A program made the translations under genes and the position numbers. This document shows, one piece after another, positions 1 to 34,243 of a stretch of DNA of 35,124 bases; position 1 is the stretch's first letter; each line of letters begins with the position of its first letter. The notes under the pieces were generated by a model. That model ran no database searches and was not told the origin of the DNA. It saw only the letters and a list, made by a program, of their open reading frames with translations. The stretch is from a virus (lineage: Duplodnaviria > Heunggongvirae > Uroviricota > Caudoviricetes): the IMG/VR virus record IMGVR_UViG_2690316269_000012. One strand, given 5' to 3'.

Positions 1-1002
1 TTACCCTCTATTGTCAAAAGGGTTCAATTCAACAGCAGCCTCTAAATGACCTGGAGCAAAATGCGCATAACGCATAGTCATTTTTATATCGCTATGCCCC
101 AGTATTTTTTGCAACACAAGAATATTTCCGCCCCGCATCATAAAATGACTGGCAAACGTGTGACGTAGCACATGAGTTAATTGCCCATCAGGAAGCTCGA
201 TCTTCGCTCTCTTAATTGCAGCGTCAAAAGCCTCATAACATGGTGAAAATAGCGCTCCTCGTTTTTGAGGAAGCATAGCCTGCAATTGAGGTGAAATCGG
301 TACAGTGCGGTTCTTCTTTCCTTTAGTTTTAACAAATGTGATTCGACCGGGCAGTACTTGAGATTGCTTTAATCCTTCAGCTTCACTCCACCGAGCACCA
401 GTCGCAAGCCCAATACGGACAACAACCCCCAAATCTTTATTCCGTGACTCATCACACGCAATCAGAAGGCGTTCAATCTCATCTACATACAGAAACGCCA
501 GTTCCTTTTCTTCCTCACGAAACTTGCGAATACCAGTCAGGGGGTTTTCACCAGACCACTCCCCAAGGCGCTTCAGTTCGGCAAAAACAGCATGTAGATA
601 TGACTGCTCGCGATTAACGGTTGCTTCACTAAGTTTTTTCTTCCCCTTGGGATTCCATTCTCCTGATAGCCTTCTTTCCCGATAAGTAGCAAACATATTT
701 TTGTCAAACTGAGAAGCAAATGGATCCCCCAGCCTGGAACAAATCGCCTCAAGTTTGACTTTGCGCTCTGCACCAGAGGACAAGGTTTTACCGTACATCT
801 CAAACCAACGAGCAATCAACTCAGAAAGACGAGGACCAGAACCATCTTGAAACTCGTCTCCAACTCTACTATTCATTAAACGGCGCTCATAAGAGAGCGC
901 CTCACTTTTTGTCGCAAACTGTTTACGAATGCGTTTTCCCGATGCCCCGTAGGGATAACATTCGCAAAGCCATTTACCTGATGGAATCTTACGAACCGAC
1001 AT
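1..1002 (-). CDS. int: tyrosine site-specific integrase (P2-type)
   Basis: 333-aa ORF with C-terminal tyrosine-recombinase motifs (GARWSEA, HVLRHTFASHF, LGHSDIKMTMRYAHF); terminal gene of the repressor-led minus-strand operon, as in P2. Confidence 0.93.
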   Translation of the reverse strand: MSVRKIPSGKWLCECYPYGASGKRIRKQFATKSEALSYERRLMNSRVGDEFQDGSGPRLSELIARWFEMYGKTLSSGAERKVKLEAICSRLGDPFASQFDKNMFATYRERRLSGEWNPKGKKKLSEATVNREQSYLHAVFAELKRLGEWSGENPLTGIRKFREEEKELAFLYVDEIERLLIACDESRNKDLGVVVRIGLATGARWSEAEGLKQSQVLPGRITFVKTKGKKNRTVPISPQLQAMLPQKRGALFSPCYEAFDAAIKRAKIELPDGQLTHVLRHTFASHFMMRGGNILVLQKILGHSDIKMTMRYAHFAPGHLEAAVELNPFDNRG

Positions 1003-1007
1003 TTTAG

Positions 1008-1355
1008 TTACTTATCACATAAATCAAATGCAGCCTTAGTGACATCCCCCAGACTCTTTTTTAACCCTGGGGCGGCATCATTATCTAGCCAAAATGGATT
1101 ATTGTTATCTAACGGTAACGCACCAAATGTTTTACCTTTTATTCGAGCTAAACCTGTAAGCGCATATAACTTATTATCGTCAAAATTCATCACATAAGGA
1201 TTACCATCAAGACACTGTAATTGAACCTCATCAGTATTAAATGGCCATACCCCATTGAAACTCTCACGTTCAATAGTTTTAAAAGGCATTGCGACGGCGG
1301 AAAAAGAAAACATAGATAAAAAAGTAACTAATAGTTGAACCTTTTTTACTTTCAT
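1008..1355 (-). CDS. small secreted/periplasmic protein of unknown function (cargo)
   Basis: 115-aa ORF with N-terminal signal-peptide-like segment (MKVKKVQLLVTFLSMFSFSAVA) and two Cys; lies between repressor and int where P2 has no gene. Confidence 0.55.
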   Translation of the reverse strand: MKVKKVQLLVTFLSMFSFSAVAMPFKTIERESFNGVWPFNTDEVQLQCLDGNPYVMNFDDNKLYALTGLARIKGKTFGALPLDNNNPFWLDNDAAPGLKKSLGDVTKAAFDLCDK

Positions 1356-1384
1356 ATCATTACCTCAATTTAGCTCAAGTAAGA

Positions 1385-2035
1385 TTACAAATTAAAAAAC
1401 ACCCTAGAAATGGCACCGCCTACCAAAACCCCTACGCAGATAAAGAATATTATTTCTTTTGGATAAAGTCGGATTAATTCTGAAGCACGAAGTCGAACTT
1501 CTGGTAAGGCCGAACTCTCTGTGTGACTTGATGCCGATTGTTGCTCTAACCACGACAATGCAGACTGTAACTGAGAACGAGTAAGATCGTTTAAACGTCC
1601 TGTACCGAAATTGATATGGCAATACCGCAGAAGTTTTTGTCGAAGTCCACAGTCTTCACTGTTACGTAGTAATAAACTTACAAGAGTCTTACAGGCATCA
1701 TGATCTTTACATCGCTCAAGCATTGCATGCAGAAAACTCTCCGCTGTTTTATATTGATTTACTGTCATATCATCAATACCAGCTACACCAATCTCCGCAT
1801 GTACTTTTTGCCAAATAATAAACGCTTCAGTATTGCTAGCTTCTGCAATAGCAGCAACCAAGCTATTTAGCTCCTTACGCTGAGCCTTAAGCAAAGGGCG
1901 ATCGTCATCATCATTATTCGAAGGGATTGCGATATTGACGGTATGAGAACCATCATATCGCTCTATCTGAATATTCTTTTCGTGAAAATCACGCCCAGCA
2001 ACGCGATTGTTTGAACCGTTTGAGTTGACGGCCAT
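1385..2035 (-). CDS. membrane-anchored protein of unknown function (cargo)
   Basis: 216-aa ORF; soluble N-terminal region and a single C-terminal hydrophobic helix (IIFFICVGVLVGGAISRVFF); 15 nt downstream of the repressor stop. Confidence 0.55.
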   Translation of the reverse strand: MAVNSNGSNNRVAGRDFHEKNIQIERYDGSHTVNIAIPSNNDDDDRPLLKAQRKELNSLVAAIAEASNTEAFIIWQKVHAEIGVAGIDDMTVNQYKTAESFLHAMLERCKDHDACKTLVSLLLRNSEDCGLRQKLLRYCHINFGTGRLNDLTRSQLQSALSWLEQQSASSHTESSALPEVRLRASELIRLYPKEIIFFICVGVLVGGAISRVFFNL

Positions 2036-2050
2036 GTCACCTCCCTACTA

Positions 2051-2455
2051 TCACCTACCCTTAGTTTCGTTATAGTCACGACCAGCGATACGGTTATTAC
2101 CACCAGAAATATTTAACTCACGTCCTGATGGCTGAGTTTCCTTTTCACTGATCGCACCTTTTAAAGCCCCGATCACCGCGTTTTTCACATCTAACGAAGC
2201 TGCTCGAAAGCGAGTAATCAACTCCTGCTCATCATCGTTATAAGTTTCAGGTGAGTGAATTCCCAACACAACATACTGAACATCAAGGCCAAAACGAGAC
2301 AGCGCTGCCAAATACGCAGCATCAGGAAAGCTATCTCCTTTCTCATATCTAAGCTGAGTTAGCTTTTTGACTCCACCAATGTCGCTCATGGCAACTTGAC
2401 TAAGTCCCAATCTTTCCCTTTCCTCACGCAACCGCTGACCAATATCATTTTTCAT
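2051..2455 (-). CDS. C: immunity repressor, HTH XRE-family (P2 C-like)
   Basis: 134-aa ORF; N-terminal Cro/C1-type helix-turn-helix (QRLREERERLGLSQVAMSDIGGVKKLTQLRYEKG); divergent from the early operon. Confidence 0.85.
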   Translation of the reverse strand: MKNDIGQRLREERERLGLSQVAMSDIGGVKKLTQLRYEKGDSFPDAAYLAALSRFGLDVQYVVLGIHSPETYNDDEQELITRFRAASLDVKNAVIGALKGAISEKETQPSGRELNISGGNNRIAGRDYNETKGR

Positions 2456-2464
2456 ACAAAAACC

Positions 2465-2493
2465 TTGACAGGTATCTTTTTTGATACCAAAAT
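2465..2493 (+). promoter_or_regulatory. candidate early promoter (TTGACA-N17-CAAAAT) with operator-like dyad GGTATC-N6-GATACC (2471..2488) in the spacer
   Basis: -35 consensus hexamer at 2465..2470; perfect 6-bp inverted repeat between -35 and -10; sits in the 75-bp gap between divergent repressor and early genes. Confidence 0.45.
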
Positions 2494-4595: not shown

Positions 4596-4985
4596 ATGAT
4601 TGACGCTCATGACTTCACAAGATGGGTGCGCACACAGGACACCCGTCTGGCTCCCGTTCTTCAGGGATTATTTGATCTCTACATCCGTGGTCGTGACAAC
4701 AGAGCACGCACCACAAAACCGGAGAATGCAGACACCCTTTATTTCACAGTAGACGACTGCTACCGCGTGGACTTCACACCACACGGGCTGGCGTTGCACT
4801 GCCTGACACCACACGGCGAATCACTGCTGGCGTATTACGACTCCCCGGCCTCCATATTTGCGGCAATGCTGGCGCATCGCACTGCTGGCGGGTGTGCCTC
4901 GCTGAGTGAATACTCCGCTGAATTTAACCGCCTTTCCGCCCTCTTCTCACAGGAGTGGCAGCGCGTGACGGGATACCAGCCATGA
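4596..4985 (+). CDS. hypothetical early protein (position of P2 B/orf8x genes)
   Basis: 129-aa ORF immediately upstream of and overlapping the gene A start. Confidence 0.5.
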   Translation: MIDAHDFTRWVRTQDTRLAPVLQGLFDLYIRGRDNRARTTKPENADTLYFTVDDCYRVDFTPHGLALHCLTPHGESLLAYYDSPASIFAAMLAHRTAGGCASLSEYSAEFNRLSALFSQEWQRVTGYQP

Positions 4986-7822
4986 GTGCGTTTGCATGGA
5001 GCTGGAATGAACCACGGCCAGCCATTGATCCGGCCAGATTTACGGAGCGCAGGCAGGAAACTGAAACCGACCTGCAACGCGCCATCCGTTACTACCTTGA
5101 GGCAAACAAAAGGGCACAGGAAGAACAGGAAGCGAAGGAAGAAGCCTTTTTCGCACAATCCACCGTGGGTAAAAAACTCATGGCATCCCTTGAGGAAGCC
5201 GGACAGCGTGAAAAGCTGGCACAAAGCATCATCAGCAAGCGTCAGGCAACAGAACAAGACCCGGTGGCCCGTGCTTTTGCCACACTGAAGGTGCTTCCCG
5301 TTTATCTGCGTGAACCTCTGAGCCGCCACCTCTCTTTTCTGCGCAAGAAGCAGGAAGCCGATCGTCAGAAAGGCAAAAAGAGCTGGCAGGCTGAACGCTA
5401 CGCGCGCGGAACCCTGCGCAAAATATTCGAACGTCTGGACCGCACCGACAGCCGCTGGCTGACACCGGGCTATCGCTCCCTTGCCGGACGCGAACGCCTG
5501 GACGATTTGCTTTACCTGCCGCAGCTCAACAAACACCAGATACAGACGCTGGCCACCATGACGGCGGCGATGTTCAGTGGCACTTTTGAAAAACTCTGCG
5601 ATGGCTTTGGCGCGACCGATGGCGAGCTGACCATGGATGTAACGCTGAAGGCGTATCAGATGCTGGCCCGCATGGCGTTACACCTGCACGCTATGCCTCC
5701 ACATTATGACGCTCTGACAACAGACAAAGACCGGAGGAATGAACCGGACACGGAGCTGCTGCCGGGCGCAATCCTTCGCCTGACCTGTGCGGAATGGTGG
5801 AAACGCAAACTGTGGCTGTTACGTTGCGAGTGGAGAGAAGAACAACTCCGCGCCGCCTGTCTGGTTTCCAGAAAAACATCACCCTATCTGAGCCAGGACG
5901 CGTTAAGCGAGTTTCGCGCACAGCGCGAGAAAACACGCGATTTCCTGAAAAGTTTCATGCTGGAAAACGAAGACGGGTTCACGATTGATCTCGAGACAGT
6001 GTATTACGCGGGAGTAAGTAACCCGATTCACCGTAAGGCAGAAATGATGGCCACCATGAAGGGGCTGGAACTTCTGGCCGAAGCCCGTGGCGACAGAGCG
6101 GTGTTTCTGACTGTCACCTGCCCGTCAAAATACCACGCCACAACAGAGAACGGTCATCCGAATCCCAAATGGAACGGGGCCACCATGCGCGACTCCAGCG
6201 ATTACCTGGTTAACACGTTTTTTGCGGCGGTCCGCAAGAAACTGAACCGCGACGGCCTGCGCTGGTATGGCATCCGCACGGTGGAGCCTCACCATGACGG
6301 CACCGTGCACTGGCATATGATGGTCTTTGCTCATCCGGAAGAAATCGACACCATTGTGTCCCACACCCGCGATATTGCCATTCAGGAAGACCGCCACGAG
6401 CTGGGCAATGATATTACTCCGCGCTTTAAGGTGGAGTATGTCGACGGCTCAAAAGGCACGCCAACCAGCTACATCGCCACCTACATCGGAAAGAACCTGG
6501 ACAGCCGCGCCGTGGATGGCATCGACCCGAAAACGGGCAAGCCACGCGTTGACCACGAAACCGGAAAATCAATGGCCGAGAGCGTGGAACGCGCCATCGG
6601 CTGGGCACGCCTTCACCGGGTCCGCCAGTTCCAGTTCTTTGGCATCCCCTCCCGTCAGGTATGGCGTGAACTCCGCCGCCTTGCCAGCCAGATGGCACGC
6701 AACCCGGAAGGCCCACAACGGCTGAAGGATGATGCAATGGATGCGGTACTCGCTGCCGCTGATGCCGGATGTTTTGCCACCTACATTGAAAAACAGGGTG
6801 GCGTACTTGTTCCGCGCAAGGACTACCTGATTCGCACAGCCTACGACCTCGCAGATGAGCTGAACGATTACGGCGAACAGAGTGTACAGATTTACGGGAT
6901 CTGGTCGCCATTCATCGGGGAATCCTCCCGTGTGTGCACGCATCCGGATAACTGGAAGCTGGTAAGACGTAAACCGGAAGCGGAAGACAGCGCCCGCGAA
7001 AATGGTTTTGACCTTCAGGGCGGCCCTGCCGCCCCTTGGACTCGTGGCAATAACTGTCCCCGTGTACAGGAAACAGGCAACAACGGGACAGAACAGCCGG
7101 AAGAACGGCCAGCACCGTGGCCGCAGCTTCCTGACGGCGTTGAAGTAAATGAATGGATGCGCTCACTGAAACGGCACGAACGCCGGGCGCTGATGCGTTC
7201 GCTTCGTGACAAACAGGCAAAAAACAGCAGCGATGAAATGCAGAACTGGACACAGAGCCGCAAACAGCAGCGGCCTTTGCCTGATAACCACGAGTTACTC
7301 GCTAAAGAATGGCGGGAGTCTGCTGAATCTCTCGGCCTGCATATCGGTGAACAACAGATGCAGCACCTGTTACGGGGCGGCAGTCTGTACGTTGACGGCA
7401 GCATCATTGCACCGCAGGGATTTGAAATTGTACGCAAACCGGATACCCGCCCGGACAGCCGAATCACGCAGCTCTGGCAGCGTCTGAGCCGTAATCATGG
7501 CGTAAGCAGCACGGAGATCCGCCATAACCCGGTCGCCAGCTATCTGGCACAGCTGGGGGCATCAGACCCTGAAGCCGCCGCACGCCTGGCATCCACACTT
7601 CAGCAGGACCAGAACACCATGAAAACACCCGTTACCGTGCTTTCTGACATGCTGCGCGCCATCCGCGACGCAGAGCACGCACAGAGAATCAGTGAAACCA
7701 CTGAACGCGCCAGCCGCAAAGCAGACCTGCTGCGGGGTGGCCTGACCAGTGGAAACAAAAAACAGACAGAAACGGGACTCACGAATCCCGTAAATGAGCA
7801 AAAAACGCGCAGCGATATATGA
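4982..7822 (+). CDS. A: rolling-circle replication initiator endonuclease (P2 gpA family)
   Basis: 946 aa from ATG at 4982; HUH-type motif (GTVHWHMMVF) and overall resemblance to P2 gene A product; longer than P2 A (about 761 aa) with a C-terminal extension. Confidence 0.88.
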   Translation: MSAFAWSWNEPRPAIDPARFTERRQETETDLQRAIRYYLEANKRAQEEQEAKEEAFFAQSTVGKKLMASLEEAGQREKLAQSIISKRQATEQDPVARAFATLKVLPVYLREPLSRHLSFLRKKQEADRQKGKKSWQAERYARGTLRKIFERLDRTDSRWLTPGYRSLAGRERLDDLLYLPQLNKHQIQTLATMTAAMFSGTFEKLCDGFGATDGELTMDVTLKAYQMLARMALHLHAMPPHYDALTTDKDRRNEPDTELLPGAILRLTCAEWWKRKLWLLRCEWREEQLRAACLVSRKTSPYLSQDALSEFRAQREKTRDFLKSFMLENEDGFTIDLETVYYAGVSNPIHRKAEMMATMKGLELLAEARGDRAVFLTVTCPSKYHATTENGHPNPKWNGATMRDSSDYLVNTFFAAVRKKLNRDGLRWYGIRTVEPHHDGTVHWHMMVFAHPEEIDTIVSHTRDIAIQEDRHELGNDITPRFKVEYVDGSKGTPTSYIATYIGKNLDSRAVDGIDPKTGKPRVDHETGKSMAESVERAIGWARLHRVRQFQFFGIPSRQVWRELRRLASQMARNPEGPQRLKDDAMDAVLAAADAGCFATYIEKQGGVLVPRKDYLIRTAYDLADELNDYGEQSVQIYGIWSPFIGESSRVCTHPDNWKLVRRKPEAEDSARENGFDLQGGPAAPWTRGNNCPRVQETGNNGTEQPEERPAPWPQLPDGVEVNEWMRSLKRHERRALMRSLRDKQAKNSSDEMQNWTQSRKQQRPLPDNHELLAKEWRESAESLGLHIGEQQMQHLLRGGSLYVDGSIIAPQGFEIVRKPDTRPDSRITQLWQRLSRNHGVSSTEIRHNPVASYLAQLGASDPEAAARLASTLQQDQNTMKTPVTVLSDMLRAIRDAEHAQRISETTERASRKADLLRGGLTSGNKKQTETGLTNPVNEQKTRSDI

Positions 7823-7898: not shown

Positions 7899-8858
7899 AT
7901 GAAAATTTACATCGACGACGGCTCCACCAACATCAAGCTGGCATGGACTGAGAACGGCGAACGCCGCAACGCCATCAGCCCGAACAGCTTCAAGTCGGAA
8001 TGGTCTGCGCCGTTCGGTGGCTCGCAGCCTGCTAACTACATGCTTGATGGCGTGCGCTATGGTTTTGATCCGGTCAGCGATCGCTTTGTCCAGACGACCG
8101 ACACGCAATACCAGTACAGCGATGTGAATGTCATTGCCATTCATCACGCGCTGGTCAAATCAGACATCACGCCACAGGAAGTGGATGTGGTTGTTACCCT
8201 GCCACTGAGCGAATATTTCGACACAAACGCACAGCCGGACATGGCCAACATCAACCGCAAAAAAGCGAACGTCATGCGCCCGGTGGAGTACCAGAACGGC
8301 GAAGCATTCACTATCCGTAACGTACGGGTTATGCCTGAATCCATTCCGGCTGGCTTTAAAGCACTGGCTGACATGAGTCCGTTTGAATCCCTGCTGATTG
8401 TGGATTTGGGCGGAACCACGCTGGATGTGGCAAAGGTTCAGGGGCAACTGGCAGGTATCAGCCAGGTGTTTTGCGATCCACACGTAGGCGTTTCTCTTAT
8501 GGCCGATGCCGTACTGTCGGTGATGGCCACTAACGGTATGCGCACCAGTCACCACATCGCCAATACCATTATCGAACATCGCCATAATGAAGCCTGGCTG
8601 CGCCAGCACATCCACAATGACGCGCATTACGCCAGCCTGATGGCGGTTATTCGTGAAAAGGAAGAAACACTGAAACAACGCGTGATCCGCGCGCTGGCGG
8701 TTTTTTCGGGTTACGGGCGGGTGATGGTTGTCGGTGGCGGGGCGGAGATTGTGGCACCCGCTATCCGCGAAGCCTGCGGAGTTAATGCGACTTTCATCGC
8801 GGACGGGGTGCCACAGTTTGCTCTGGTTAATGGGCTGTACGCAATGGACAAGGAGTAA
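7899..8858 (+). CDS. parM: actin-like segregation ATPase ParM/StbA
   Basis: 319 aa; N-terminus MKIYIDDGSTNIKLAW and later blocks (YSDVNVIAIHHAL, VMPESIPAG, LIVDLGGTTLD, VVGGGAEI) match plasmid R1 ParM closely from memory. Confidence 0.88.
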   Translation: MKIYIDDGSTNIKLAWTENGERRNAISPNSFKSEWSAPFGGSQPANYMLDGVRYGFDPVSDRFVQTTDTQYQYSDVNVIAIHHALVKSDITPQEVDVVVTLPLSEYFDTNAQPDMANINRKKANVMRPVEYQNGEAFTIRNVRVMPESIPAGFKALADMSPFESLLIVDLGGTTLDVAKVQGQLAGISQVFCDPHVGVSLMADAVLSVMATNGMRTSHHIANTIIEHRHNEAWLRQHIHNDAHYASLMAVIREKEETLKQRVIRALAVFSGYGRVMVVGGGAEIVAPAIREACGVNATFIADGVPQFALVNGLYAMDKE

Positions 8859-8862
8859 ACCA

Positions 8863-9174
8863 ATGACGACACCAACCAGACGGATAAGTTTCTATCTGAA
8901 GCCCGCCGCCGTCAAGAACGAAGGAGAAGCATGCGCCTGGCTGGACAGCCTTACACCAGAAGCCCGCAAAAGCGGCCAACGCGTGGCTTTTCTGGCCGGG
9001 CTGGCACTTCTGAAGACGAATCCGGCAGAGGCTTACCGACTGGCCGCATGGGCTGATGATGAGATGTTACCTGTGACACAAATCAGCTCAAAAAAGTTTG
9101 AAGCACAGTCTGCACCAGTGGCTAAGATAACCAGCCAGATGGCTGGGAATATCCGGGCGTTATTTCCTGAGTAA
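8863..9174 (+). CDS. parR: ParR-like centromere-binding adaptor
   Basis: 104 aa from ATG at 8863; ISFYLKP...LDSLTPEARKSGQRVAFLAGLAL and C-terminal IRALFPE resemble R1 ParR; directly follows parM. Confidence 0.8.
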   Translation: MTTPTRRISFYLKPAAVKNEGEACAWLDSLTPEARKSGQRVAFLAGLALLKTNPAEAYRLAAWADDEMLPVTQISSKKFEAQSAPVAKITSQMAGNIRALFPE

Positions 9175-9843: not shown

Positions 9844-10293
9844 TGCACGATAGTGCACAAGTTTGCACAATTTTTTTGAACGACTTTTTGTACTTCCGGC
9901 CCGCGTGGTGGCTGGATCCGTCAAGGATCCGTACGTGCACAAAAAAACGCGTTTTTTCTGCGCGCAGGTGACGGGGGAACAGCCCGCGTTTCAGGGGGTA
10001 AATAGCATCCCCTGAACGATGTCGCAGCGACACAACAGAATGGCTGTATTTCTCACGCTGAGCGTGAAAAAGACGTGAGGGCTTTTGATTTGATGGGTGG
10101 CAGATAAGGCCGTCAAAATCGCACTGAGGCGGCGAGAACATGCAGTCAACGCGGTGGGATTGCGTAAGAGTCTGACCGCCGATGATGACAATAAGCAGAA
10201 AAGCGTCGTGAAATTATCTGATTGATACAGGAGCTGGAGAGTCGGGGCATAAATTTTTTATGCCCCGGCGAAGCAGCAGACAAGCGAAGCGCG

Positions 10294-11340
10294 TCAGGAT
10301 GTGGGCTGGGTATCTAGCAGTGCGTAAGGGTTAAAGCGGATCACCTCTTCGCCAAGCCAGTCATTGATGTGCTTCATGGCCTCCATGACGGGCATCAGCT
10401 CGTTAATTGCGTAAACCCGCGCGGCCTTCTCCACATCACCAAACGCACTTTTTTCGCCCGGCATCGCCCCCATCAGTTGCGGCGGAACGCGGTGCGCAGC
10501 CAGCACATCATCACGGGATGCCGCCTTAACATTCATGAACTCATCCTTTGCAGTGATCTGCTGGAACGGCAAAATTTGCACACCTTCTTTGCCCCCGTTG
10601 GGCGCATGGATGAGTACGTTTTTAAACGCACCACCACCACGCGCGCCCTGTAACGTTTCTTTCAGGGAGTCCATGCTTTCGCGGTTTACCTGCGCTGCAC
10701 CGATGTAGATGATGCACCCGGCGTGGGATCCGTTGTCGTAGTACAGTTTTCTGAACATGTCCGCCGAATGAGAAAGGCTGGCCGAGAGTAATGCGCCAAG
10801 ATATTCCGGCATGCCGTAGATTTCCTGGTTAATATCCGGATTCATCAGGTGGCACACTTTGCCAGGGCGAAACTGGAACGCGTCCTTGCCATCCTGCACA
10901 TACCACCATGATTCAAGATCGCTTCCGCGTCGCATGTATTTCGCCAGGGCGTGCCGTAATTTAAGCGGTTCGCCGAGCATATTGCTTCTAAGCTCAAGGA
11001 ATGCGTTACCGAACACAAACCAGTCCAGCGCCAGCGCCGAGAAATCCTGCCGGGAAAGCAGCGGGTGCGGGATGTAGCAACCGAGTAATACATTGCGCTT
11101 AAAGTAAAGCGCAGACTGATGCCAGGACGTTTGCCGGGCTGCTCTTGCCAGACCGTACCAGTCCACCGGGGTTTCATACCACCGTCCGTTATCAGCACAG
11201 TACATATTGTCCAGCAGGTCATGCCCGGTCAGGCGATAAGGACCATCAAATGTGAATGCACTGAGCGATGATTCTTTCCTGAGCGCATCAGCGAGATCAA
11301 TGCGTGAACTCATGCGCACTTTTTTATTTTTTCTGCTCAT
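10294..11340 (-). CDS. Q: portal protein (P2 gpQ)
   Basis: 348 aa; size and sequence character of P2 Q; stop/start abuts gene P. Confidence 0.9.
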   Translation of the reverse strand: MSRKNKKVRMSSRIDLADALRKESSLSAFTFDGPYRLTGHDLLDNMYCADNGRWYETPVDWYGLARAARQTSWHQSALYFKRNVLLGCYIPHPLLSRQDFSALALDWFVFGNAFLELRSNMLGEPLKLRHALAKYMRRGSDLESWWYVQDGKDAFQFRPGKVCHLMNPDINQEIYGMPEYLGALLSASLSHSADMFRKLYYDNGSHAGCIIYIGAAQVNRESMDSLKETLQGARGGGAFKNVLIHAPNGGKEGVQILPFQQITAKDEFMNVKAASRDDVLAAHRVPPQLMGAMPGEKSAFGDVEKAARVYAINELMPVMEAMKHINDWLGEEVIRFNPYALLDTQPTS

Positions 11341-25141: not shown

Positions 25142-25747
25142 CTATTTATACAATACAACACCGCTCTTTTTAGTTATATATGTGCAGTTCGATGGTATAT
25201 CTTTATTTATAAAAGACATTGCACCTATTTTTACATTATCCCCAATTTTACGTGATAATCCAATGATGCAACAATTAGCTCCGATATCAACGTTACTACC
25301 AATTTTTACTCTTGAACCAGGCATGTCACCATCTATCTGTCCAATGGTAGTATTCTGTCGTAACACCAGATTTTCACCAGCATCAACAGCAAAATGAACA
25401 ACAATTCCAGCATGATGGGGAATTGTTAACCCTTTTCCAATATTTGCGCCCAATCCAATTTCACAACCAAATTTGTTAATTATTTTACTGTTTAACTTTT
25501 TGGCTGCTTTCTTATGTAATTTATTACCATTAATATACATTTCGTTAGCCAACCGCCACCAGAAAAGGAAATTCCGGTTACGCTGTTTTTTCTCTCTTAA
25601 AAGCCTCCAGATATCCATACGTTTCCGCCGAATTACTTCATATTTCCAGAAGTTTTTTAAATTAGTAGAGTCCCCAAATAAAACAAAGTGAATTGCCATT
25701 AAGTAAGACAGCACGATAATCTCCTTAATTATTATTTCAGACCACAC
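25142..25747 (-). CDS. hexapeptide-repeat (left-handed beta-helix) O-acetyltransferase, CysE/WcaB-like (cargo)
   Basis: 201 aa; tandem hexapeptide repeats (IGANIGKGLTI, IGSNVDIGANCCIIG, IGDNVKIGAMSFI); strongly AT-rich island 25100..25860. Confidence 0.75.
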   Translation of the reverse strand: MWSEIIIKEIIVLSYLMAIHFVLFGDSTNLKNFWKYEVIRRKRMDIWRLLREKKQRNRNFLFWWRLANEMYINGNKLHKKAAKKLNSKIINKFGCEIGLGANIGKGLTIPHHAGIVVHFAVDAGENLVLRQNTTIGQIDGDMPGSRVKIGSNVDIGANCCIIGLSRKIGDNVKIGAMSFINKDIPSNCTYITKKSGVVLYK

Positions 25748-33103: not shown

Positions 33104-34243
33104 GTGGGAAACAATAAAGTGAAATTAGGAAGAAATGATAAGTGCTGGTGTAATTCAGGACTTAAGTATAAAAAGTGCCATCTTGGTCGAGATCGTGAAA
33201 CTCCGGTATCCAAAGCCGAGGCACTGAAATTTTCAAAGTCTCTCTCGCAGAGAAAGGCATGTTATGCGCCAGCATCCATGCACGAAGATTGTGATAAACG
33301 CATCGTTCAGGCGCATACGATATCTAAGAGCAGTAGCCTTAAGGCGATCGCCGACTCCAGCAATCACGTCATGGGGGTGATAATGAACTTAGCAAGCCTG
33401 ATGAGAAACAACGGAAAATGGCTTCCCGAGAAGATCGGTATCAATCAGGCATCCACTTTTACAGGATTTTGTGCAGTTCATGACAGAATCTTATTTTCAT
33501 GCCTAGAGAACGAAAAATTTACAGGCACGGACGAGCAGTGCTTTGCCTTAATGTTTCGTTCATTGTCTAAAGAAATTTATGCCAAAGAAGGGGGAGTGCT
33601 ATCTTCTGATTTTGCTAAAAATGCCGATAAAGGAAAGCTACAAGTTGAACAGTATTATATTCAGAAATTAATCGACCAGCACCAAAGTGGCTTAAATGCA
33701 GCAATAATTGAATTAAATAATCTTAAAACTAGCCTCGACCGCATCCTACTTAGCAGGCAATTTTCAGAAATTGAAAGTGTTATCTTCACTTTTGCAGAGC
33801 CTTTACCAATTGTAGTTTCGTCAATTCTTTCACCGGAGAGGGATTTCGATGGGACCAAAATTCAGGATTTGAGCGATCTTACAGTGTCGGCGGAACAAGT
33901 ATGTTTCAATGCTTTTTCCTGCGGAGGTAAGGGATATGTAGTGTTCAGTTGGCTGAGAACTTCAACAATTATCAGACGTTTTATACGGACACTAATTAAG
34001 ATCCCAGCTAACAGGATGTTCAATACCCTTCTGTATTTTTTCTTCACAAAGGCCGAAAATACATATTCATCCCCTGAGTGGTGGGACAGGCTCAGTGATA
34101 AACAGCGAGAGAATATCGGCAACATGATTATGTCAGGGGTTGAATTTTTTGGCATACCTACATCACAGGTTGATCATTCCGTTGATTATAACGCCGCTGC
34201 ACTTGAAGAGATAACATGCAGCAACAACGAAATTTGCAGCTGA
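33104..34243 (+). CDS. SEC-C-motif protein with uncharacterised C-terminal domain (cargo)
   Basis: 379 aa (GTG at 33104, or in-frame GTG at 33119); N-terminal LGRNDKCWCNSGLKYKKCH matches the SecA-type SEC-C zinc motif; remainder unrecognised; AT-rich island between D and ogr. Confidence 0.6.
   Translation: MGNNKVKLGRNDKCWCNSGLKYKKCHLGRDRETPVSKAEALKFSKSLSQRKACYAPASMHEDCDKRIVQAHTISKSSSLKAIADSSNHVMGVIMNLASLMRNNGKWLPEKIGINQASTFTGFCAVHDRILFSCLENEKFTGTDEQCFALMFRSLSKEIYAKEGGVLSSDFAKNADKGKLQVEQYYIQKLIDQHQSGLNAAIIELNNLKTSLDRILLSRQFSEIESVIFTFAEPLPIVVSSILSPERDFDGTKIQDLSDLTVSAEQVCFNAFSCGGKGYVVFSWLRTSTIIRRFIRTLIKIPANRMFNTLLYFFFTKAENTYSSPEWWDRLSDKQRENIGNMIMSGVEFFGIPTSQVDHSVDYNAAALEEITCSNNEICS

Follow-up and report, generated by a model that had tools for sequence, protein, structure and literature searches.

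In phage P2, the lysogenic operon is transcribed leftward from Pc, with the repressor gene C first and int last, facing the early lytic promoter. The same order is found in a 35,124-nucleotide (nt) stretch of DNA from IMG/VR virus record IMGVR_UViG_2690316269_000012 (Caudoviricetes), hereafter called the window, but here the repressor is an XRE-type helix-turn-helix (HTH) protein extended by a helical hairpin and a motif-bearing tail, and two genes, orf216 and orf115, are inserted before int. What are these two genes doing in an operon devoted to lysogeny? A first-pass annotation had described them as encoding a 216-residue protein with a single C-terminal membrane anchor and a 115-residue signal-peptide protein, co-oriented and tightly spaced, and had taken both for lysogen-expressed cargo. 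The description agrees with our analysis in all these points. The label of cargo fits orf115, with its variable slot and low GC content; it does not fit orf216, which always follows the repressor and shares a co-varying motif with it. We present evidence that orf216 is instead a partner of the repressor.

The link between the two proteins is a short motif. The C-terminus of the repressor (...ELNISGGNNRIAGRDYNETKGR) and the N-terminus of orf216 (MAVNSNGSNNRVAGRDFHEKN...) carry matching copies, which we call tail and head: 10 of 17 residues are identical, and MAFFT placed the repressor tails against the orf216 head. When back-translated, the 8-residue core NR[IV]AGRD[YF] occurs at only two places in the window, the tail and the head, against an expectation of 0. 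By inspection, the motif is made up of G, N and Q plus alternating hydrophobic residues. Both copies are located in conserved segments, which remain disordered in the AlphaFold2 monomer models, and on these models they would be expected to behave as elements that fold on binding. With the copies just 87 nt apart on the DNA, one could imagine the repeat to be a neutral remnant of a local duplication and both genes to be unrelated cargo. However, the two stretches agree at only 30 of 51 nucleotides (59%), and six of the ten identical residues are specified by different codons; since the copies differ at synonymous sites, they appear to have been kept at the protein level. In P2-like, Mu-like and GC-rich phages alike, moreover, the match is conserved and the copies co-vary. 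The codon differences, together with the permutation test and the independent sample of pairs described below, contradict a neutral duplication, to which we attach practically no probability. The start of orf216 shares the reading frame of the repressor, beyond three consecutive in-frame stops (TGA TAG TAG, with the TGA at 2051–2053) and a GGAGGT site, all within 2036–2053 of the minus strand; a read-through fusion of both proteins was considered and rejected, given this triple stop and the gaps of 7, 8, 11 and 13 nt found elsewhere.

How specific is the motif to this gene pair? A back-translated 10-residue version of the pattern, scanned against viral contigs, yielded 145 instances at 100 loci. 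Most of them (88) are C-terminal tails of HTH repressors. Flk_N proteins account for another 54, at their N-termini (four truncated at the end of a contig), and 117–118-residue proteins with two transmembrane helices and a Zn-ribbon for the remaining three, again N-terminal. Fourteen tails had no canonical Flk_N signature downstream, two of these loci ending at the contig end; at representative loci of this group, some of them in GC-rich phages, we found divergent Flk_N or Zn-ribbon membrane partners with a motif-bearing start 4–30 nt past the repressor. Wherever the sequence continues far enough past a tail, a membrane protein bearing the motif comes next, for this last group as judged from the representative loci. 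Among the 145 instances, the motif is exclusive to the pairing of a repressor with a membrane partner.

The pairing itself is strict. We compared 93 loci, 92 fetched in addition to that of the window, from E. coli, Klebsiella, Rosenbergiella, Mixta, Izhakiella, Enterobacter, Erwinia and many viral contigs; since many are near-identical E. coli copies, they represent only a few dozen independent lineages. At all 93, a relative of orf216 begins 7–18 nt after an HTH repressor whose tail carries the motif, and distant Flk_N proteins in Mu-like and other phages likewise have an HTH repressor immediately before them. The class of the tail and that of the head change jointly in P2-like, Mu-like and GC-rich phages, as seen for the tail/head combinations QTFNAPISGGEFAARDIVNHG/QEFNNQIHDGQFAGRDIVNNI (locus L197), QVFHGKVGQSIAGNVDQRG/QVFREDVGQAVAGDLVNSG (L198), QQFNGPVGTVTTGDVVNKE/QQFHGAVEQVAAGDIKNFIE (L196), QIFNGDISGQFAGNQIINNG/QEFNGTAQGQFSSRDIINI (L201) and GEGQIAGGNIYTT/AEQIAGRDIYNIT (L204), and for a further class-matched example in which QVFHGKVGQSIAGNV is paired with QVFREDVGQAVAGDL. 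For 19 diverse pairs, the local-alignment scores of cognate tails and heads summed to 1012, compared to 696 ± 58 for permuted pairs; none of 20,000 permutations reached the cognate sum. In 18 of the 19, the cognate score was many standard deviations above that of shuffled heads, L199 scoring no better than its shuffles, and the matrix of tail/head scores was block-diagonal by motif class. A second, independent sample, fetched with the repressor profile, comprised about 47 distinct pairs of a repressor and its downstream protein; about 39 of the heads reached z ≥ 4 against their own tails, and a transmembrane segment was present in nearly all partners.

On the repressor side, the motif is part of a discrete appendage. 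The protein is composed of an HTH domain (residues 1–64), a helical hairpin (74–106) and a flexible C-terminal tail (107–134); in the AlphaFold2 model (37 sequences), the predicted local distance difference test (pLDDT) score is 80–93 for residues 1–106 and below 50 for residues 107–134. We retrieved 232 repressor homologues, and the tail motif is kept on proteins with as little as 32% overall identity to that of the window. A crude pattern match flagged 39 of 120 listed homologues as tail-less, some of these being truncated fragments or variant tails missed by the pattern. The one tail-less homologue that was examined, from a P2-like prophage, is followed by genes of the type found before int, as described below, and by int itself, with no motif-bearing partner.

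Since orf216 follows the repressor in every related locus and shares its co-varying terminal motif, it is, judged by sequence comparison, a conserved component of this immunity-region type and not cargo, and we consider it highly probable that it is functionally coupled to the repressor. The first-pass annotation had named a conserved core component of structural role as the finding that would speak against its proposal; orf216 comes close to this, being conserved in this immunity-region type, although its role would be regulatory or membrane-related rather than structural.

What kind of protein carries the head? The single hydrophobic segment of orf216, residues 195–213 at the extreme C-terminus, has a Kyte-Doolittle value of 2.36 (19-residue window), and in the AlphaFold2 model (35 sequences, mean pLDDT 74) a disordered stretch (residues 1–45) is followed by helices (50–172, pLDDT 80–88), a linker and a C-terminal transmembrane helix (192–215). 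A YPKE sequence ahead of the hydrophobic C-terminus is conserved throughout the family, and relatives stop 0–6 residues past the anchor. We predict that orf216 is tail-anchored in the inner membrane and faces the cytoplasm. Homology searches led to the Flk_N domain for orf216 and to the DUF2511/YebY family for orf115. In orf216, residues 37–166 match positions 20–149 of 339 in the NCBIfam Flk profile (NF007987; E = 8.9e-16), BLASTP aligns 124 residues with E. coli K-12 Flk at 28% identity (E = 2e-10), and homologues with 59–99% identity carry the precomputed assignment PF27202 (Flk_N). At 58.1 bits, the protein stays far below the Flk equivalog cut-off of 353 bits; by these profiles, orf216 has a Flk_N domain without being Flk itself. 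Among 1.84 billion representatives, a profile search returned only 138 relatives, divided into phage-type proteins of about 185–225 residues and chromosomal Flk proteins of 320–430 residues. One further relative is a Rha-family phage regulatory protein, the C-terminal half of which resembles the first half of Flk_N. In the phage collection, matches were confined to record 520873, which derives from a prophage, and to three weak hits in Ralstonia phages, with phage P88 absent from them.

Flk (Fluke/RflH) is a tail-anchored regulator of the flagellar export-specificity switch that binds the cytoplasmic domain of FlhA (PMC13344023). The significant Flk_N homology and the common topology raise the possibility that orf216 acts on the flagellar type III export switch as chromosomal Flk does, thereby altering motility or the adsorption of flagellotropic phages. 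We regard such mimicry as very unlikely: apart from the low equivalog score, orf216 has 216 residues and one copy of the domain, compared to about 331 residues and a partial repeat in Flk, the head motif is absent from Flk, and orf216 is phage-borne and placed after a repressor. The orf216 family is also abundant in prophages of Klebsiella, a usually non-flagellate genus. Finally, other phages exchange the Flk_N body for unrelated membrane proteins while motif and pairing are kept: the head is found on Flk_N domains with a tail anchor, on Zn-ribbon proteins with two transmembrane helices, and on membrane proteins of 151–325 residues, of which the independent sample contributed sizes of 151–173 and 261–325 residues.

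Some partners carry a small Cys-pair domain past the transmembrane segment, which is presumably periplasmic. At L274 (2911–3720), L276 (2923–3900), L284 (2926–3711) and P0270, this module, a possible sensor domain for which Pfam gave no match, reads C-x-[FY]-x-G-x-x-[YF]-x-x-G...A-P-D-x-x-C. Two further observations concern the pair. In Candidatus Symbiopectobacterium endolongispinus (L014, 3999–4631), the Flk_N gene carries a frameshift and the tail motif of the repressor is degraded (NRVAGNNFHE), as if both members of the pair were decaying together in a symbiont genome. The membrane partner of Mu-like and GC-rich phages is often followed by a gene whose product begins in the manner of a lipoprotein or a secreted protein (by eye, LAIAGC, LVGC or LMGC), as at L195 (3638–4165), L196 (3597–4862), L204 (3499–3873), L098 (2175–2981) and L145 (reverse strand, 9895–10842); the operon of L196 also encodes a TIR_2 protein.

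How might repressor and orf216 work together? We propose a two-gene module that would couple the repressor to an inner-membrane partner via a homotypic motif and probably control repressor availability, a proposal for which we see the chances as evenly balanced. The two motif copies would touch in a homotypic contact of the beta-strand type, part of the repressor pool would thereby be tethered to the inner-membrane protein, and the partner would set the level of free repressor on the operators. As a latent anti-repressor or sensor, orf216 could then trigger induction on a membrane or envelope cue, the latter being suggested by the apparent periplasmic domains of some partners. Within this proposal, a direct contact of repressor and orf216 through the motif is slightly favoured, whereas control of induction as the outcome of the coupling is a more tentative assumption and on balance falls short of being probable.

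Several points weigh against the proposed module. Within the motif class seen most often, the best score does not fall to the cognate head, so that specificity exists at the level of classes only. About 8 of the 47 pairs in the independent sample have z < 4, although at least two of these are errors of start or open reading frame (ORF) calling, and start-codon calls influence some of the head alignments. Co-variation could also arise if both copies tracked a third factor, or if, as neighbours, they were subject to gene conversion. Lastly, the constant co-expression of a repressor and its antagonist requires some gating mechanism.

Alternatively, the motif could be a shared tag that a host protease or an anti-repressor, for example from a satellite, recognizes; the membrane protein would then serve as a decoy or competitor, protecting the repressor or coordinating its turnover, and the two copies would not touch. 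Both copies are exposed disordered termini, as is typical of degrons and short linear motifs, and repressor tails end in a basic patch. It would also fit that the epsilon protein of P4 derepresses P2-type prophages and that the stability of the Mu repressor is set by its own C-terminal tail. However, a conserved host factor would not predict many divergent motif classes that are always matched within a pair, and the G/N/Q content with alternating hydrophobic residues resembles, by inspection, self-associating beta motifs. We therefore view a shared tag as distinctly unlikely.

The proposed module has counterparts among known regulatory systems. In operons of extracytoplasmic function (ECF) sigma factors, the sigma gene is followed by that of a single-pass membrane anti-sigma protein, which binds the factor through its cytoplasmic N-terminus. 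The layout of repressor and orf216 resembles this, and the small, presumably periplasmic domain of some partners could sense a signal; yet there is no relation in sequence or fold, the proposed contact is a short matching motif, and the regulated protein is a phage repressor. In the ImmR/ImmA and DdrO/IrrE systems, an XRE-family repressor is inactivated on a signal by the product of a neighbouring gene (PMC6868357). The antagonists there are soluble COG2856 metalloproteases, whereas orf216 is membrane-bound and shows no ImmA/IrrE-type COG2856 domain by Pfam or NCBIfam. In its motif layout, the pair is closest to the amyloid-signalling pairs, such as fungal NWD2/HET-S, the bacterial BASS pairs and Bab/Agp from an E. 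coli prophage, in which a motif of about 20 residues is located C-terminally in one protein and N-terminally in the product of the neighbouring gene. Motif classes match within pairs and one partner resides at the membrane in both cases. Of the features that define the fungal and bacterial amyloid-signalling gene pairs (FASS and BASS), repressor and orf216 thus show the same motif on adjacent gene products, matched within pairs; in place of an NLR/TPR sensor and a Bell/HeLo effector, they combine an XRE-type HTH repressor with a Flk_N tail-anchored protein. The membrane protein here holds the N-terminal copy; as to cross-beta fibrils, what was observed of the motif is its composition, judged by eye, and its disorder in the monomer models. 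By analogy, the pair would act most like a sigma/anti-sigma or ImmR/ImmA arrangement, with the motif layout of amyloid-signalling pairs. In the open-access papers searched, we found neither the pairing nor the motif strings described, nor any account of Flk_N proteins in phages.

Taken at face value, the amyloid-signalling analogy would make the membrane protein the trigger and the repressor the target, as there the sensor bears the N-terminal copy and the converted protein the C-terminal one. In its strongest form, tail and head would constitute a prion-like beta-arch signalling pair that flips the lysogeny switch: an envelope or infection cue would cluster the membrane protein, the repressor would co-assemble on this template and be stripped cooperatively from its operators, and P2-like and Mu-like prophages would enter lytic growth by an SOS-independent, all-or-none switch. 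We consider it unlikely that the tail/head contact is amyloid-like, and place no greater confidence in such a prion-like switch.

The likeness to Bab/Agp, an abortive-infection pair with the same arrangement of C-terminal and N-terminal motifs, suggests a different function, which carries over to orf216 the exclusion or abortive-infection role named by the first-pass annotation as typical of this position. Here, as in Bab/Agp or HET-S/NWD2, the membrane protein would be an executioner that is activated through the motif when the repressor, or something displacing it, changes state, and which kills the infected cell or blocks infection in it. The partner is always a membrane protein, the region from repressor to int is taken to be expressed in the lysogen, and a minor defence hotspot between int and primase has been reported for P2-like phages (PMC13586616). 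On the other hand, neither orf216 nor orf115 matched a defence model of PADLOC-DB 2.0 at E ≤ 1, and orf216 has no effector-like fold. The polarity is also opposite to that of known pairs, where the membrane effector bears the C-terminal and the sensor the N-terminal motif, and an HTH repressor would be an odd sensor of infection. An abortive-infection or exclusion pair is, in our assessment, quite unlikely.

It is poorly understood how P2-type prophages leave lysogeny, and classical P2 is not known to be inducible by the SOS response. Should the coupling of repressor and membrane partner prove true, it would connect the envelope directly to the genetic switch in P2-like and Mu-like phages, a link of lysogeny to the cell membrane for which we found no description, and the logic of matched motifs on adjacent gene products, familiar from cell-death signalling in fungi and bacteria, would extend to the control of transcription. 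A prion-like mechanism, if true, would be the first amyloid-type signalling in the control of the lysogeny decision. The module is common: the stretch 1003–2050 is present, in single copy each, in 511 of 5,426 complete E. coli genomes, that of O157:H7 EDL933 among them, and relatives occur in Klebsiella, Serratia, Enterobacter and others.

The second inserted gene, orf115, is a different case. Its product starts with a classical signal peptide (residues 1–22, 1290..1355; MKVKK-VQLLVTFLSMFSFS-AVA, followed by M), as the first-pass annotation had recognized, and belongs to Pfam family DUF2511 (PF10709; 28.4 bits, cut-off 21), with further matches to phrog_2950 (E = 8.7e-40) and to the solved structure of E. 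coli YebY (PDB 7n0j; E = 0.003). W37, C48 and C113 are invariant in 12 phage-borne homologues and correspond to the conserved Trp37 and the Cys48–Cys113 disulfide of periplasmic YebY (PMC8689200). The only other YebY relative studied is MlbQ, a lantibiotic self-resistance protein (PMC8689200). Owing to the family match, the invariant residues and the parallels to YebY and MlbQ, orf115 is predicted to be a small secreted protein of the binding type. It shares family, signal peptide and both cysteines with YebY from the AZY operon (yobA-yebZ-yebY) in E. coli, but in place of the CopC/CopD partners of that copper operon its neighbours are orf216 and int.

The position of orf115 before int is a truly variable slot. 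Across related prophages, the interval from the Flk_N gene to int measures 323–1875 nt and is occupied by at least eight unrelated gene families, all co-oriented: DUF2511 proteins, acidic DUF8087 proteins (81–108 residues), BRCT-containing proteins (288–295 residues), proteins of 292–298 residues, a coiled-coil/transmembrane protein together with a Cys-rich protein of 117–131 residues, a secreted protein of 200 residues, and several singletons. At one and the same attachment site (pgsA-uvrC), prophages of one Klebsiella lineage carry either a DUF2511 gene or the 288-residue BRCT protein, and in some Enterobacteriaceae a gene for a YebY homologue, flanked by those of a XerD-like recombinase and a phage CI repressor, has been noted before (PMC8689200). 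Because the content of the slot varies, with alternative occupants at the same attachment site, and because orf115 has the lowest GC content of the operon, the gene is, on comparative grounds, exchangeable cargo, independent of the repressor/orf216 pair. Most likely, it would act at the envelope as a lysogenic-conversion or exclusion factor, and the slot before int is a place to look for envelope-acting prophage cargo. A role of orf115 as a periplasmic partner of orf216 was rejected, as the slot varies and relatives of orf216 end so shortly after their anchor. Among the other occupants, the commonest in Klebsiella and Enterobacter is the 288–295-residue family, with an N-terminal BRCT domain (L002, 4647–5513, and relatives; 23.9 bits, cut-off 21.3), and the proteins of 292–298 residues (L088, 4551–5447) have a C-terminus that appears BRCT-like by eye only.

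The coordinates of the operon and its elements are compiled in the table.

Table. Features of the lysogenic operon and its flank (window coordinates)
Feature	Position	Strand	Description
HTH repressor, XRE-type	2455..2051	minus	134 aa; Pfam HTH_31/HTH_19/HTH_3; PHROG transcriptional repressor/regulator families
Repressor tail motif LNISGGNNRIAGRDYNE	2066..2116	minus	residues 114–130, then basic end TKGR
15-nt spacer	2036..2050	minus	TAG TAG, then GGAGGT ribosome-binding site of orf216
orf216, predicted tail-anchored inner-membrane protein	2035..1385	minus	216 aa; phrog_5825, E = 3.7e-102
orf216 head motif VNSNGSNNRVAGRDFHE	1979..2029	minus	residues 3–19; matches repressor tail
orf216 Flk_N helical domain	1538..1903	minus	residues ~45–166
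orf216 transmembrane tail anchor	1397..1456	minus	residues ~194–213; Kyte-Doolittle and AlphaFold2
orf115, DUF2511/YebY family, predicted secreted	1355..1008	minus	115 aa; signal peptide and family matches
Tyrosine integrase (int), last operon gene	1002..1	minus	Pfam Int_N, 111 bits; Phage_integrase, 80 bits
Promoter-like site TTGACA-17-CAAAAT	2465..2493	plus	consensus match only; faces away from repressor

The four genes are separated by gaps of only 15, 29 and 5 nt, and ribosome-binding sites precede orf216 (GGAGG) and orf115 (GAGG). A consensus scan of the minus strand from the repressor to int found no terminator-like site, and the sole internal promoter-like match was weak (9/12). A single four-gene lysogenic operon of repressor, orf216, orf115 and int is plausible, with predicted co-transcription; the placement of both genes in the lysogenic operon by the first-pass annotation was, in our judgement, right, co-transcription being consistent with a sequence that lacks an intervening terminator-like site. 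The plus-strand site is likely to be the early lytic promoter, upstream of genes named Arc-like and Cox-like after the annotation of NC_049344. Plus-strand ORFs beneath the region are short (41–56 residues), whereas the proteins encoded on the minus strand have PHROG matches and deep homologue families, which for orf216 and orf115 reach down to 58% identity with many invariant columns; the assignment of both as real genes rather than chance ORFs is thus safe. The whole operon is AT-rich compared to the window: GC content falls from 52% in the window to 45% in int, 44% in the repressor gene, 41% in orf216 and 35% in orf115.

By its sequence, the window is a P2-like prophage, and its positions 1–2800 are 98.3% identical to Escherichia phage 520873 (Peduoviridae, Xuanwuvirus). 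The record of this phage (NC_049344, 1039–3080) annotates int as two coding sequences and leaves the interval of orf216 and orf115 without annotation; as tblastn recovered orf216 from it in three pieces, the record appears to be frameshifted. In the E. coli genomes that contain the stretch 1003–2050, RefSeq labels the two genes "membrane/hypothetical protein" and "DUF2511 domain-containing/YebY family protein".

Elsewhere in the window, a plasmid-type partition pair is encoded at 7899–9174 (plus strand), in which a ParM/StbA actin-like ATPase (319 residues; StbA_N 270 bits, ParM_N 229 bits) is joined by a Plasmid_stab_B protein; PADLOC gave no match to either. The pair occupies the usual accessory hotspot of P2, between the replication gene (4955–7822) and the portal gene (10294–11340). 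An ORF of 379 residues at the prophage's right end (33104–34243, plus strand) has an N-terminal SEC-C motif, to which its only PADLOC matches, weak ones to 'E2', are confined, the remainder of the protein having no family match. Finally, a 201-residue ORF beside the tail-fibre region (25142–25747, minus strand) shows weak matches to hexapeptide repeats of the acetyltransferase-like kind.

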